A stretch of 64,000 bases of DNA from a plasmid. Positions 5,770 to 10,266 of the stretch are shown here, piece after piece. The translations under genes and the position numbers were made by a program. The DNA lies in the NCBI RefSeq assembly GCF_056712565.1, contig NZ_JBWXXM010000002.1; one strand, given 5' to 3'. The notes beneath the pieces are model-generated. The model made no database searches. It saw only the letters and a program-made list of their open reading frames with translations, and was not told where the DNA came from. Position 1 is the first letter of the stretch. Each line of letters starts with the position of its first letter.

Positions 5770-6045
5770 ATGAATGAACTAAAATCCAAAAACGAGAACA
5801 GTACCAAAAGCAACTTTCCCCCGGTTGATAATCAGTTTTGCTTTTACCATGTTGATTTCAGCATAGAACGACTACTTTCTACGGCCGAGGATCTCCAGCT
5901 TGAGTACATCTTCCAGAAACCTGGAAGTGAAGTAAGAAAGGATTTGGTTGAGCGATTCGAACGTGGAGAGCGCTTTGTTACAGCTTCACACTGTGACAAT
6001 TTCTGTGAAATCCTTGGTTGTCAAGGCCATCAGGAAAATGCATAA
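5770..6045 (+). CDS. hypothetical small Cys-rich protein, first gene of 8-gene operon
   Basis: ATG 5770 preceded by GGAGAG; ORF track start 5740 is further upstream; C-terminal CDNFCEILGCQGH. Confidence 0.4.
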   Translation: MNELKSKNENSTKSNFPPVDNQFCFYHVDFSIERLLSTAEDLQLEYIFQKPGSEVRKDLVERFERGERFVTASHCDNFCEILGCQGHQENA

Positions 6046-6089
6046 ACCCATAAACCTACATTTCCACTTTTAAGGATGTTCACTAAAGA

Positions 6090-6680
6090 ATGATTGGAGA
6101 AAGTATTTTTGACTGGGTAATTTACGGAATATCCATTTTGATATTTGCCTCAGCACTAATTGAAGGAAAGACAACTCGCTACCCAGCACTTTTTTTCTAT
6201 GGGAGTTTAATTTTAATGTTAATCCTGATAGTTGCTGGAGGCCTTAACTGGTGGTTCTACAGGTCAAAATATGGCGCAGTAATCGTTATCTTCACAGTGG
6301 TTTCTTTACTGATGACTCGATTCCGCCTGGTCATATATAAATTAAGATTAAGAAAGTTAGTTTCAGAGATCAGATTTCGTATAAAAACGGGTTTTCGTAT
6401 AATTCTTGTTTTGTCGGATAATGAGGATGAGCGTAATGTTCTGCTGTCTATGCTTAGCAACGTATTGCCAGAGCAAACGCTTATTCACACGCGTGATGCT
6501 CTCGGACCTCATTCAGGGCCTATCCTAAAAGCTCTTGAGCTACATCATCAACAGGGAACAGGTTACATACTCGTCTGTGAACAACAAATCTCAGCGCGTA
6601 CGTGGTTGAGTATCGTAGAAAATGGGAAACCTGATACATCTATAGCTGTTAATTTTCATTCGATCCCAGAAATGGAGTGA
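6090..6680 (+). CDS. hypothetical membrane protein (3 predicted TM helices plus soluble C-terminal domain)
   Basis: hydrophobic N-terminal segments; operon context. Confidence 0.5.
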   Translation: MIGESIFDWVIYGISILIFASALIEGKTTRYPALFFYGSLILMLILIVAGGLNWWFYRSKYGAVIVIFTVVSLLMTRFRLVIYKLRLRKLVSEIRFRIKTGFRIILVLSDNEDERNVLLSMLSNVLPEQTLIHTRDALGPHSGPILKALELHHQQGTGYILVCEQQISARTWLSIVENGKPDTSIAVNFHSIPEME

Positions 6681-6687
6681 TTTTTCA

Positions 6688-6945
6688 ATGAGTAGAACCG
6701 TTTCACAAAGTGTCACAGAAGATTGTCTTTTTGATACCCGCACACAAGTCAGATTACAACTAAGTCGAAGCGTTCATAAAACGCTGGCATCTGCTAAAGA
6801 AATTTTACAGGGAAGGGGGGTTGATTCGGTCTCTATTGAAGATCTTGTGCGAGCCTGTCTTGAAGAGAACCAGCCAATTGATCTCGCCTCACTTTACCTT
6901 GAAAATCTCTTAAAACAGAAAGGTACCAGCATTTGCGATTTTTAG
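6688..6945 (+). CDS. hypothetical protein (85 aa)
   Basis: ORF 8 nt after previous stop, GGAGTGA RBS. Confidence 0.45.
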   Translation: MSRTVSQSVTEDCLFDTRTQVRLQLSRSVHKTLASAKEILQGRGVDSVSIEDLVRACLEENQPIDLASLYLENLLKQKGTSICDF

Positions 6946-7018
6946 TGTTTTCAAACCTATTAGATAAAATGCCGGTTGTGTTTATATAACATCAATAATT
7001 TCATGCAACAGGTAAAAC

Positions 7019-7571: not shown

Positions 7572-8018
7572 ATGCATAAAAAACTTTTTCTTCTCGAATG
7601 GAAACCCTGTCAGAGCCGCGTATGGGCCGGTTGGATGGCCCTGTGGTTGACTATCAGTTTTCTGATGTTATCTGCCTTGCTTATGACAGATCATCTCCTG
7701 AACAAAGTCATCCTGCCGCCAACATGGTTGTTGATCTGGTTTTCGCCAATGCTGGGGTTTTTGATAAAAGTTCGCGTCGTCGAAACTCAACATTTCCTGG
7801 AGCATGACCTCTGTGTTGCAGGTTTCTCTTTTTACCGCTGGAAGAGGTTAGTTTCTCCCGGGCTTTGGTCAGTTGACTGTATAAATGGTCGTTTTCGCCT
7901 CAATCGGATCACCCAGGTGGGTAAGACTATCCACTATCCATGGCGTCTCCATTATCATCCTTTGTTCATGAGCCCTATCGAACATAAATCGCATGCTGTG
8001 AAAGCTGTTTCAAAATGA
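7572..8018 (+). CDS. hypothetical membrane protein (148 aa)
   Basis: hydrophobic segments WMALWLTISFLMLSALLM and LLIWFSPMLGFLI. Confidence 0.45.
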   Translation: MHKKLFLLEWKPCQSRVWAGWMALWLTISFLMLSALLMTDHLLNKVILPPTWLLIWFSPMLGFLIKVRVVETQHFLEHDLCVAGFSFYRWKRLVSPGLWSVDCINGRFRLNRITQVGKTIHYPWRLHYHPLFMSPIEHKSHAVKAVSK

Positions 8019-8108
8019 CTTCTTTAGAGGTTTACATGACATTTATGTTCTGCAAGGTCAGCCAGGGCAGCAAAATTGATTTGAAATAACATGAGCCTGG
8101 AGAAACGT

Positions 8109-9071
8109 ATGAGTTATGACGATTTGCCCTATTTTCGTGACCAGATTCTGGAACGTATCGACTCGCTTAAGTGTTTTCTTTCGAACACCCCCCCGCTGAT
8201 GGCAAACCTGATGACTGTCTCCACCGTATCTCGAACAGAAGAGCGACTGAAGCAGGTTAAACCCATCAGGGTTAGTGTTAAAGACGATGCTTCGGTTGAG
8301 GAAATTATTCAGGCACTTACTGACATCTGTGTGGATGACATAGAGTCATTAAGTCATGATTCCACCAAAGTGACCACTAAATACCCGGGTCTTATCATTG
8401 TCCCAGAAAGAGCAGATCTTCTCGAAAGCTTGATCACATCTATAAATGAAGCAAAAAATGATTTTGCTGCGGCAATGAGGCGTATCGATAATAAAAAGAA
8501 TGTCCGTTTTGATAAAGTGCACAAGAAGCTCCCGGGCCTTGTCGCTATGCACTCAACAAGAAATGTCCTTTTCATCAAGTCCCAGCTTAAAAAAGTTACT
8601 TTTTCATGGCGGCTAAACCGAAACCAGGAAGTTAAAACAGCAGAGCAACTTGTGAGTTTGTTGGAGCGCAGGAGAGCCTCAGAAGTAAAAAATGTAGCAA
8701 CTACCAATTTGAATGTCGTGTCTAATATCGATAAGGCTTTACACCGTCTTGAATTTCACCCACTGAAGCAGGGCGAATCTTATCGCCTTTGTCGAACTAA
8801 CTCTTTCCCTGTTCCGATTGCTCACATTTTTGCATTTAGGCCTGAAGGGCAGGAACGAAACGGGAATAAATATGCTGAGACTGATTATTCAGTAGTAAAA
8901 GCATCCTTGCCCATTTTCGCAGCAGGCAACATACCTCAATTAAAAACGCTCTCTGACTGGGCTCCTGAAAACAGCCAGGGCCCGTCCAACCAACGGAAGC
9001 TGAGCCTGAAATATACAGAACTCGTGCCGGGGGCTGAGCTGGGCATTTTCATTGTCAGCCCCGAAAATTAA
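8109..9071 (+). CDS. Tus-like protein (DNA replication terminus site-binding protein family), divergent
   Basis: N-terminus MSYDDLPYF vs E. coli Tus MARYDLVDRL; central HKKLPGLVAMHSTRNVL...VTFSWRLNRNQEV...LVSLLERR parallels Tus HRHLPGLITLNAYRTLTVL...LRFGWANKHIIKNL...VLAQLEKS (from memory); start moved to ATG 8109 with GGAGA RBS. Confidence 0.5.
   Translation: MSYDDLPYFRDQILERIDSLKCFLSNTPPLMANLMTVSTVSRTEERLKQVKPIRVSVKDDASVEEIIQALTDICVDDIESLSHDSTKVTTKYPGLIIVPERADLLESLITSINEAKNDFAAAMRRIDNKKNVRFDKVHKKLPGLVAMHSTRNVLFIKSQLKKVTFSWRLNRNQEVKTAEQLVSLLERRRASEVKNVATTNLNVVSNIDKALHRLEFHPLKQGESYRLCRTNSFPVPIAHIFAFRPEGQERNGNKYAETDYSVVKASLPIFAAGNIPQLKTLSDWAPENSQGPSNQRKLSLKYTELVPGAELGIFIVSPEN
8592..8602 (-). 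repeat. AAAGTAACTTT motif copy 3 (inside Tus-like gene)
   Basis: plus strand reads AAAGTTACTTT. Confidence 0.6.
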
Positions 9072-9080
9072 GGAACAACA

Positions 9081-9986
9081 ATGCAATGGATTTCCACAGC
9101 CAGCCAGAAAATCGATGAGCGTCTCTATCGTGTCTGCGTCTGGGTAAAAAAATATCACGCTGATGCGATTAACCGCGTTGTGCTTACCGTTGATCTAAGT
9201 AAAGCCCGACATGACCCTGACGAGGACCAGGTAAGAGCAGAGCTGCTGTGCGGCCATTATTTTTTGCTTCGTAAGGAAAACGCTTCGAACTCTGCGCCTG
9301 ACGATCAAAAGTTTGCTTTCCTGCCTGACGGGCGCAATCTGTGTTGGCAGACCGCAACCCCGGTGCTTCAGCATCTCCTGCTCAATAAAAACGTTCCTGA
9401 GTCGCTGAGGTTGCTTACGGACTACATACATATGCGTCTGGCCAGGCTGACAATGGTACCAATGTCCGGAACCATCATGAACGAGGCTCTGCTGGACAGC
9501 ATCAGCTGGGTTAAGGTGGATTTGACCTACTTCTGGCAGTACGAACAGCTCAGCTCTCATCTGGGACCCATCCAGATAACCCACAAGGCACTAGTACGCT
9601 TCGGGCATCTGGCAAAGAATGATGAAAACTCCAGTGCCATAAGAATCCTGCGTCAGCGTCTGTCTTCAGAATTCTTACAAGAATTTCAGATGGCTGAGGA
9701 TGAGCTAAAGCGCAAACAGTCGTTGATGGGCACCATGGACGTGAAAATGCTGTTTCATGCTCATTACCCCAGCCAGAAGATGCTGGTGGCTCGATATAAA
9801 AATGGTTGGGTAATGGTGGATTGTTTTCTGTTTCATCATACCAAACCTAAGAAAAAAGCAAAAAACAAAACTACTGTGGCTAAGCCTCAACTTAAAGAGA
9901 CTAAAAGAGAAGGGAGTGAAAATGGAACTGGGCATTATGGTGTGCATCGTGTTGTTACTCTCCGTGGCGGCGGCGTGGATCAGTAA
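9081..9986 (+). CDS. hypothetical protein (301 aa)
   Basis: ORF with AAGGAA RBS, 10 nt after Tus-like gene. Confidence 0.5.
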   Translation: MQWISTASQKIDERLYRVCVWVKKYHADAINRVVLTVDLSKARHDPDEDQVRAELLCGHYFLLRKENASNSAPDDQKFAFLPDGRNLCWQTATPVLQHLLLNKNVPESLRLLTDYIHMRLARLTMVPMSGTIMNEALLDSISWVKVDLTYFWQYEQLSSHLGPIQITHKALVRFGHLAKNDENSSAIRILRQRLSSEFLQEFQMAEDELKRKQSLMGTMDVKMLFHAHYPSQKMLVARYKNGWVMVDCFLFHHTKPKKKAKNKTTVAKPQLKETKREGSENGTGHYGVHRVVTLRGGGVDQ

Positions 9987-10266
9987 TAAGACAGTTGATT
10001 TGCTCGAAAGATTCTATTTCAAGCGTCCGCTGAGCATGGAGTACGCGGCATGGCTACGTGTAATGTGTGCAGGCTTGTTATTGGTTTTTATTCAGGTTGC
10101 TCCACAATTTACACTTCTGTATACCCTTAAACTTGTCACGCTTATTAATCTTGGAATCCAGACAATGAAATTAAATGGCGTGTACAAATATAAAAGAACG
10201 GGAATTTTGCCTCCGGGAGGGGCACTCTCTAATCTCACCAGACTTAACCCGTTCAAGAAAAAATAA
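9922..10266 (+). CDS. hypothetical small membrane protein
   Basis: ATG 9922 with AGGGAG RBS; two hydrophobic helices; overlaps previous gene 3' end, so boundaries uncertain. Confidence 0.35.
   Translation: MELGIMVCIVLLLSVAAAWISNKTVDLLERFYFKRPLSMEYAAWLRVMCAGLLLVFIQVAPQFTLLYTLKLVTLINLGIQTMKLNGVYKYKRTGILPPGGALSNLTRLNPFKKK

Follow-up and report, generated by a model that had tools for sequence, protein, structure and literature searches.

We analysed a 64,000-nucleotide stretch of plasmid DNA (contig NZ_JBWXXM010000002.1 of assembly GCF_056712565.1), referred to here as the window, and in particular a block of eight plus-strand open reading frames (ORFs) at positions 5770-10266, named g1 to g5, tus, g7 and g8, whose sixth member encodes a divergent relative of the replication terminator protein Tus. 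The eight ORFs agree with the gene calls of the Prokaryotic Genome Annotation Pipeline (PGAP) on identical plasmids, and the intergenic gaps from g1 to g8 measure 44, 7, 73, 16, 90, 9 and -65 nt. Gaps of 7-16 nt, including the 9 nt between tus and g7, would fit co-transcription. Downstream, a convergent gene for a tyrosine recombinase occupies 10288-11463 on the minus strand and lies 21 nt beyond the g8 stop. Upstream, a terminator scan located an intrinsic terminator on the plus strand at 5546-5570 (GGCACGG-TTT-CCGTGCC followed by eight T residues) that closes the preceding paralog genes. It constitutes a 26-bp island, 96% identical in IncHI1 plasmids, within an intergenic region that otherwise does not align, and because it is kept there the 5' boundary of the g1-g8 unit can be regarded as conserved. 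A preliminary description of this DNA, made from the sequence alone, had reported eight co-directional genes ending at a convergent tyrosine recombinase, and this layout is borne out; its spacing of 8-70 bp is roughly correct, but it misses the 90 nt between g5 and tus and the 65-nt overlap between g7 and g8. The same description called the DNA AT-rich, which is only partly so, the guanine-cytosine (GC) content being 38-39% at 5-7 kb and 43-48% at 7-10 kb, as compared with about 50% further along the window.

Judged by profile, modelled fold and pocket residues together, the 320-residue product of tus (8109-9071, plus strand) is a true, divergent homolog of Tus. The Pfam profile PF05472 matches it with E=6.1e-19 (68.6 bits), aligning residues 14-211 with positions 10-208 of the 296-position model, that is, the N-terminal two-thirds, while a direct phmmer comparison with Escherichia coli Tus is marginal (E=0.08), the two proteins being only 16-17% identical. 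An exhaustive profile search returned only 314 Tus-family clusters in 1.84 billion proteins, and many family members of about 300 residues align with the plasmid protein from end to end. The AlphaFold (AF2) model, built from a 135-sequence alignment, reached a predicted local distance difference test (pLDDT) score of 93.9 and a predicted template modelling (pTM) score of 0.88. When this model was compared with the PDB by Foldseek, the sole significant matches were the E. coli Tus-Ter structures (1ecr and 4xr0-2, E about 2e-19), with template modelling scores of 0.72-0.77 over 327 columns and the full length of the protein; the next match had E=0.15. The preliminary description's proposal of a Tus-like product at this position is therefore upheld by significant matches in both profile and structure. 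The short alignments on which it relied fared unequally, as the central HKKLPGL...F.W block does align with HRHLPGL...FGW of the E. coli protein but the pairing of the N-terminal MSYDDL with MARYDL is only approximate in the family alignment.

The pocket that holds C(6) in the cytosine lock of E. coli Tus is reportedly formed by I79, F140, H144 and G149, an assignment credited to Mulcair et al. 2006. In the 135-sequence alignment these residues correspond to V75, F134, H138 and G143 of the plasmid protein, and E49, K89, R139, R157 and R232 are also conserved. This suggests that the plasmid Tus can probably form a cytosine lock. The predicted base-reading positions of the interdomain strands are altered (E. 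coli to plasmid, A173 to R, K175 to N, K235 to F, Q237 to V and Q250 to Y), and because these residues differ the plasmid protein should recognise a sequence other than that bound by E. coli Tus. Among the database entries (P0004, P0034 and P0042) there are also clusters of truncated or frameshifted Tus (214 residues, 249 member sequences) and g7.

Positions 5700-11500 of the window are 100% identical to more than 1000 large conjugative plasmids from E. coli, Salmonella, Enterobacter and Klebsiella; 1056 plasmids hold at least 80% of the eight-gene block, 426 of the 435 E. coli matches to the region are on plasmids, and the replicon type of the matched records is IncHI2A, R478-type. The eight-gene region is thus backbone of an IncHI2, R478-like plasmid rather than a genomic island. 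Plasmids of the IncHI type rank among the main carriers of mcr-1, extended-spectrum beta-lactamase (ESBL) and metal-resistance genes. In the IncHI2 plasmid pSJ_255, numbered from the RepHI2A initiator gene at position 1, about 58 kb starting at repHI2A lie almost entirely on the plus strand, in the order Tra2, par, trh, a block of AAA-ATPase, DUF3150, VWA and toprim genes, five paralogs of about 300 residues and then g1-g8, and the coding strand switches exactly at the junction of g8 and the recombinase gene.

Comparison of five plasmid clades (IncHI2, IncHI1A, Klebsiella IncFIB and two metagenomic clades represented by loci L005 and L006) reveals that the order g1-g8, recombinase, hha is collinear in all of them, down to 21-25% identity in Tus. 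In p99COLEC-1, an IncHI1A plasmid, the complete set of eight genes is followed by the recombinase and hha in an unchanged order, at identities of 51-78% (g1 51%, g2 63%, g4 57%, g5 56%, Tus 59%, g7 78% and g8 76%). The Tus of the Klebsiella IncFIB plasmid is merely 25% identical, yet collinear homologs of several genes remain detectable, namely the C-terminal domain of g2 (E=1e-8), g4 (25% identity, E=1e-15), g5 (E=1e-4) and g7 (E=9e-9), with a small membrane protein in the g8 position. The two assembly-derived clades (Tus P0052 and P0055) display a matching series of gene sizes and a convergent recombinase. Positional equivalents of g1 measure 70-78 residues in L005 and L006, those of g3 measure 80-88 residues in all clades, and transmembrane proteins of 106-111 residues take the place of g8 in three other clades. 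Two chromosomal tus genes, on the other hand, stand alone amid housekeeping genes. By these gene-order comparisons the eight-gene arrangement is an old property of the plasmid clade, in keeping with the expectation that the gene set would prove co-conserved across plasmids. An additional gene lies between g5 and tus outside IncHI2, which does not have it; it encodes 91 residues in IncHI1 (L002, 6637-6912) and 204-217 residues in L005 (5394-6008) and L006 (5311-5964), with a weak DUF2913 match in L005.

The seven partners of Tus remain anonymous by similarity, as the preliminary description had noted, and none matches an entry in Pfam, NCBIfam, PHROGs, PADLOC or a PDB sequence search. All are encoded on the plus strand. 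The acidic products are g1 (5770-6045, called both as an ORF and by PGAP; 91 residues, isoelectric point 4.9), g3 (6688-6945, 85 residues) and g4 (7019-7555, 178 residues), none of which belongs to a known family. Three products carry predicted transmembrane helices, again as described earlier: g2 (6090-6680, 196 residues), for which hydropathy indicates three N-terminal transmembrane-like helices ahead of a soluble C-terminal domain; g5 (7572-8018, 148 residues, basic), with two such helices; and g8 (9922-10266, 114 residues), a small membrane protein with two to three transmembrane-like segments. The best-conserved partner is g7 (9081-9986), a basic protein of 301 residues with a lysine-rich, disordered tail; its gene begins 9 nt after tus ends, and the two are almost certainly translated together. 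The 5' end of g8 overlaps the 3' end of g7 by 65 nt (9922-9986) in a different frame. This overlap coincides with a 43-bp island that is near-identical to IncHI1, which is consistent with dual coding, and the database protein P0049 is a frameshift fusion of g7 and g8.

The recombinase (391 residues) is a fixed backbone gene, situated equally in all five clades with 64% identity in IncHI1 and 37% in Klebsiella. Its catalytic domain matches PF00589 (E=8.7e-12), and in a phmmer search against the PDB the top 17 matches are all Cre or Tre, with P1 Cre at E of about 2e-23. The recombinase is therefore Cre-like, and probably serves as a plasmid dimer resolvase rather than an island integrase. It is always adjoined by hha (11634-11846, plus strand; named by PGAP), which encodes a nucleoid-associated regulator of the Hha/YmoA family that is 90% identical in IncHI1 and 50% in the Klebsiella clade and is matched by PF05321 in the metagenomic clade L005. 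Just past hha lies a CoiA_N-domain gene (12207-13289; PF25164, E=1.5e-7), which is kept in IncHI1, the Klebsiella clade (33% identity) and L005. Further observations at this end of the locus concern replication initiators: in L005 a Rep3-family initiator gene (10645-11727) is found about 0.7 kb past hha, and in IncHI1A an IS1-flanked RepE (L002, 12378-13133) sits at the matching spot. The position of tus beside an origin recalls the Pseudoalteromonas chromids presented in Galli et al. 2019 (PMC6549158).

A second feature of this backbone is a dispersed 11-bp palindrome, AAAGTWACTTT, often extended to RAAAGTWACTTTY. Exact copies occur at nine positions in the window (828, 4399, 8592, 12037, 27706, 32299, 43970, 57114 and 62973). 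Relative to a third-order Markov model, 21 copies were observed against 0.18 expected in a 112-kb IncHI2 composite, an enrichment of more than 100-fold, and 50 kb of IncHI1 held 14 where 0.09 would be expected. The palindrome is the sole 12-mer (with at most one mismatch) common to the module loci of all five clades and accounts for 21 of the 27 shared words, as compared with 0-1 in shuffled controls. Four window copies fall in the 13 kb that the two plasmid types share, and each of them has a counterpart at the matching position in IncHI1. One copy (8592-8602) lies inside tus, at the codons for K-V-T-F, and each clade has one copy per tus gene, though at non-homologous codon positions in L003 and L006. 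Another (4399-4409) fills part of the gap between two upstream paralog genes; its position is kept in IncHI1 (36500), and equivalent intergenic copies are present in L005 (2033) and L006 (2908). A third (12037-12047) is about 160 bp 5' of the CoiA_N-domain gene, with the same relative position in IncHI1 (48327) and a one-mismatch copy 158 bp 5' of the CoiA_N gene in L005 (12462), an operator-like placement about 150 bp 5' of a CoiA-like gene in three clades. The repeat that the preliminary description noticed in two genes of the block is real but spans 15 nt exactly, not 20: the two plus-strand copies of CAAAAGCAACTTTCC, in g1 (5805-5819) and in g4, 10 nt past the ATG (7028-7042), are a one-mismatch variant (AAAGCAACTTT) of the palindrome and are not kept in IncHI1.

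The centre of the palindrome, GTAACT, is identical to the segment of the E. coli Ter core that is most strongly conserved, and this match makes a link between palindrome and Tus possible. Its central base is A in 11 copies and T in 10, without polarity relative to repHI2A, and in the flanks no base is conserved where C(6) would fall. The perfect symmetry, the absence of a conserved flank, the random central base and the identity of the motif in clades whose Tus base-reading residues differ speak against a classical Ter role, and argue for a dimeric regulator as the putative binder instead. A KorB-like ParB was considered for this part and rejected, as the IncHI2 ParB is of the P1 type (PF08775; PDB 1zx4, E=4e-16). 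No mention of the palindrome was found in the searchable literature.

Based on the interpretation of these data, we lean, if only slightly, toward the view that the block supplies the plasmid with a polar fork barrier of its own, next to a function in dimer resolution and together with accessory proteins, a mechanism that we infer from the features described above. Under this proposal g1-g8 would form one transcription unit between the conserved intrinsic terminator and the convergent Cre-like recombinase gene. The encoded Tus would bind a plasmid-specific, asymmetric Ter-type site unlike E. coli Ter, and unwinding by DnaB from one side would expose a flipped cytosine to be trapped by Tus, in line with the known cytosine-lock mechanism (PMC4499146). 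The resulting fork halt would limit the place or direction in which plasmid replication ends, and the Cre-like recombinase would resolve plasmid dimers arising when replication finishes. The seven partners, which travel with tus as a unit, probably modulate or localise Tus, with the products of g2, g5 and g8 located in the membrane. The switch of coding strand at the g8/recombinase junction would fit a boundary that shields the block from head-on forks, though it is suggestive only.

Several observations weigh against this proposal. One is the outcome of the search for Ter, which covered about 112 kb of the roughly 250-kb plasmid. The E. coli Ter core GTTGTAACTAA has no match in the window at up to one mismatch, and the 16-mer Ter consensus with up to three mismatches has one match in the window against 1.29 expected; this relaxed match, at 35697, was rejected as it lies inside the tnpB gene of an IS66 element. 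The E. coli TerB site lies 11 nt before the tus ATG, and resident Tus systems are described as always keeping such a vicinal Ter in the tus 5' untranslated region (UTR) for autoregulation (PMC8707476). The 90 nt 5' of the plasmid tus and the region upstream of the operon contain nothing that is Ter-like or conserved with IncHI1. An island scan of the aligned, collinear IncHI1 and IncHI2 backbones (about 45 kb, 61-73% identical) likewise produced no asymmetric Ter candidate, the intergenic islands being hairpins or terminators, promoters, gene starts and the palindrome. Two further candidates were discarded: a 16-nt inverted repeat (7980-7995/8035-8050; 88% complementary, 39 nt apart) that extends from around the g5 stop codon into the DNA ahead of tus is not kept in IncHI1, where the extra 91-residue ORF lies, and GTAACTAA, in a highly conserved stretch 3' of trhI in the IncHI2 backbone (L010, 38555-38576), is an 8-mer at chance level within DNA that looks like a terminator followed by a promoter. 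The fork trap envisaged in the preliminary description is accordingly not supported so far, as no Ter-like site emerged in the span searched. Because no recognisable Ter lies beside the distant chromosomal tus genes of L007 and L008 either, the lack of a TerB-like sequence counts only weakly against function.

Other points against the fork barrier concern the protein, the plasmid and the partners. The plasmid Tus falls far under the cutoffs of the NCBIfam equivalog NF002810/TIGR02648 (53.1 versus 323 bits and 20.9 versus 178.3), and on its sequence is a member of the Tus family rather than an ortholog-equivalent of chromosomal Tus. On a plasmid of about 255 kb, tus and repHI2A are about 56 kb apart and not opposite each other, and the switch in coding strand is a local feature of a plasmid that has a second replicon. 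Operon structure is read from gene spacing only. No lox-like site (arms of about 13 bp with at least 11 of 13 paired, spacer of 6-8 bp) was found at 5400-13400 of the window, and none is conserved among the clades, although such a site may be less symmetric or lie in another part of the plasmid. Among natural IncHI2 plasmids, an IS21 insertion sequence (IS) disrupts g2 in p98203 and ISEc8 replaces g8 in pEA04.1, and truncated Tus sequences circulate in databases; since genes of the module are destroyed in this way, the module is not essential for plasmid maintenance. The truncated or frameshifted clusters of Tus and g7 and the IS-hit g2 and g8 may represent either real dispensability or assembly errors. 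In view of the disrupted g2 and g8, the membrane-associated system that was proposed for the block in the preliminary description was overstated, as synteny is its only basis.

The abundance of the palindrome raises the question of whether Tus might instead bind AAAGTWACTTT wherever it occurs, including in its own gene, and so serve the IncH backbone globally, as a roadblock, a regulator or an organiser, rather than as a polar barrier at a few Ter sites. The enrichment of more than 100-fold in both IncHI2 and IncHI1, the unique sharing of the word by the loci of all five clades, the identity of its GTAACT centre with the conserved part of the Ter core and the presence of a copy in the tus gene of every clade, at non-homologous positions in two, would all be accommodated by such a role. 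We nevertheless consider it unlikely. Tus acts as a monomer on an asymmetric site of 23 bp, but a target that is perfectly palindromic points to a dimer; neither the flanks, which have no counterpart of C(6), nor the evenly divided central base supplies polarity, and the motif stays identical between IncHI1/2 and the Klebsiella clade while the predicted base-reading residues change. The copies 5' of the CoiA-like gene, moreover, resemble ordinary operators. Rather less probable still is a service in conjugation or establishment, in which the Tus-like protein would bring a helicase to a halt, for instance in transfer-associated or rolling-circle synthesis, and the membrane proteins would link it to the transfer apparatus. 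The module does stand at the end of a long co-directional block after the Tra2 transfer genes, and in IncHI1 as well as IncHI2 it comes after trhI and the AAA-ATPase/DUF3150/VWA/toprim block with no change of strand; it encodes three membrane proteins, and the intergenic hairpins of the upstream block are more conserved than its genes. However, the conserved terminator parts the module from these upstream genes, the origin of transfer was not located, a Klebsiella plasmid that carries the module is typed as non-mobilizable, and the partners have no similarity to any transfer protein.

Two further explanations regard the module as a relic or as foreign cargo. That it is a decaying relic without current function would account for the IS insertions in g2 and g8 and for the truncated and frameshifted forms of Tus and g7 in databases; it appears quite improbable when set against intact frames and gene order in five clades down to about 21% identity, the 1056 plasmids that hold most of the block and the retention of the pocket residues, and some of the truncations may be assembly errors. 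The preliminary description's label of an integrase, and with it the notion that the block is cargo of an integrase-bounded island carrying a fork trap, have in their favour the tyrosine recombinase at the end of the block and a GC content lower than that of the DNA further along. This label is misleading and the island is scarcely credible; it is already contradicted by the evidence and was rejected, because all eight genes keep a shared order with the recombinase and hha in five plasmid clades, plasmids account for nearly all E. coli matches, the recombinase resembles P1 Cre most closely, the flanking DNA is itself conserved backbone, and the window contains no tRNA or tmRNA gene. The plasmid-specific fork barrier beside a dimer-resolution function thus remains the interpretation that we favor, to the modest degree expressed above.

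The surroundings of the module offer some additional observations. Directly 5' of it stand five tandem paralogs of about 300 residues with 27-28% mutual identity and no known domain; three of these ORFs lie within positions 1-5506 of the window (2453-3373, 3440-4378 and 4550-5506) and two more lie further upstream in the IncHI2 backbone (L001/L010). The paralogs are kept in IncHI1, and two to three copies are present in the metagenomic clades L005 and L006. Between trhI and the toprim gene, intergenic hairpins are about 90-95% alike in IncHI1 and IncHI2, as compared with about 70% for the neighbouring genes; the conserved gaps fall 5' of the window, at 39.6, 40.05, 41.1, 42.5, 43.7, 45.8, 46.1 and 47.4-47.7 kb of L010, and an Rfam scan of these upstream hairpins gave chance-level matches, none of them significant. 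A block of about 350 bp 3' of trhI (L010, 38427-38761) combines two copies of the palindrome with a terminator and a promoter-like element. Downstream of the module the backbone is broken by ISs in the window. These include a putative IS5-type transposase ORF (13860-14840), called from its own sequence, an IS66-family element (tnpA/B/C) at about 34900-37400 and a stretch (52770-53537) that is 95-99% identical to the IS1 copies of the IncHI1 plasmid. Because of these interruptions the window differs from references such as pD90-1, in which the terY and kinase genes follow directly after the CoiA-like gene.

To our knowledge, only Tus of the E. coli type has been studied mechanistically. The IncHI tus unit represents a concrete and easily manipulated system in which the target of Tus, fork arrest and the contribution of the partners can be addressed, and the palindrome makes an obvious starting point for such work, whatever protein binds it. 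For the origin of the chromosomal fork trap, domestication of a plasmid gene was proposed in Galli et al. 2019 (PMC6549158). A bolder extension, which we put forward as improbable, takes the plasmid Tus as the likely forerunner of the chromosomal trap and holds that it does not act by itself. It would instead supply DNA binding to a complex of eight proteins, partly embedded in the membrane, which disappeared upon the domestication of tus; the target of Tus would be AAAGTWACTTT, and the polar Ter would have evolved from this symmetric plasmid site. If this were true, the GTAACT centre of the palindrome would survive in chromosomal Ter.

The Tus-like gene itself is not a new find. PGAP names its product 'DNA replication terminus site-binding protein' on more than 1000 plasmids, a tus gene and a 'potential ter site' are mentioned for the IncHI2 plasmid pSTM6-275 in PMC5923156, and Galli et al. 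2019 (PMC6549158) treats plasmid-borne, 'mobile' tus genes and regards chromosomal tus as probably domesticated from a plasmid. Within the searchable literature, in which we found no functional work on IncHI Tus, we believe that four elements of the present analysis are new: the deep eight-gene synteny specific to plasmid tus, the Cre-like identity of the recombinase beside the module, the retention of the lock pocket together with changed base-reading residues and no vicinal Ter, and the highly enriched palindrome.

Among known systems, the KorB OB operators of IncP plasmids are likewise a palindrome dispersed around a plasmid. AAAGTWACTTT resembles them in being short, in having an ambiguous central base and in recurring about every 5 kb in genes and intergenic DNA alike, but differs in that the IncHI ParB is P1-type and not KorB-like. 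P1 Cre/loxP offers a parallel in that the IncHI2 recombinase is closest to Cre among solved structures and resides on a large, low-copy plasmid; the likeness ends at the lox-like 13-n-13 site, which was not found near the recombinase, and its role as a resolvase is a prediction. The plasmids R6K and R1/R100 have Ter sites that work with the host Tus, and fork arrest there controls which way replication runs or where it ends; R1 is among the plasmids mentioned in PMC10331603. Whereas these plasmids carry E. coli-type Ter and borrow the Tus of their host, IncH plasmids have a divergent Tus of their own and, over the 112 kb examined, lack Ter of the E. coli type. The IncHI2 backbone tus belongs among the mobile tus genes of PMC6549158 and with the tus of pSTM6-275 (PMC5923156), although the available text of these two sources does not describe the seven partners, the fixed recombinase and hha, the conservation of the pocket or a cognate site. 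The closest comparison is with E. coli Tus itself (PF05472; PDB 1ECR, 2I06 and 4XR0-3), with which the plasmid protein shares the two-domain fold, the pocket, several arginine and lysine residues that contact the DNA backbone, a similar size and a basic isoelectric point. It differs in its low sequence identity, in falling below the equivalog cutoff, in its changed predicted base-reading residues and in a tus 5' UTR that is free of Ter. In summary, chromosomal tus is a solitary, autoregulated gene, whereas plasmid tus is the sixth member of a unit of eight.

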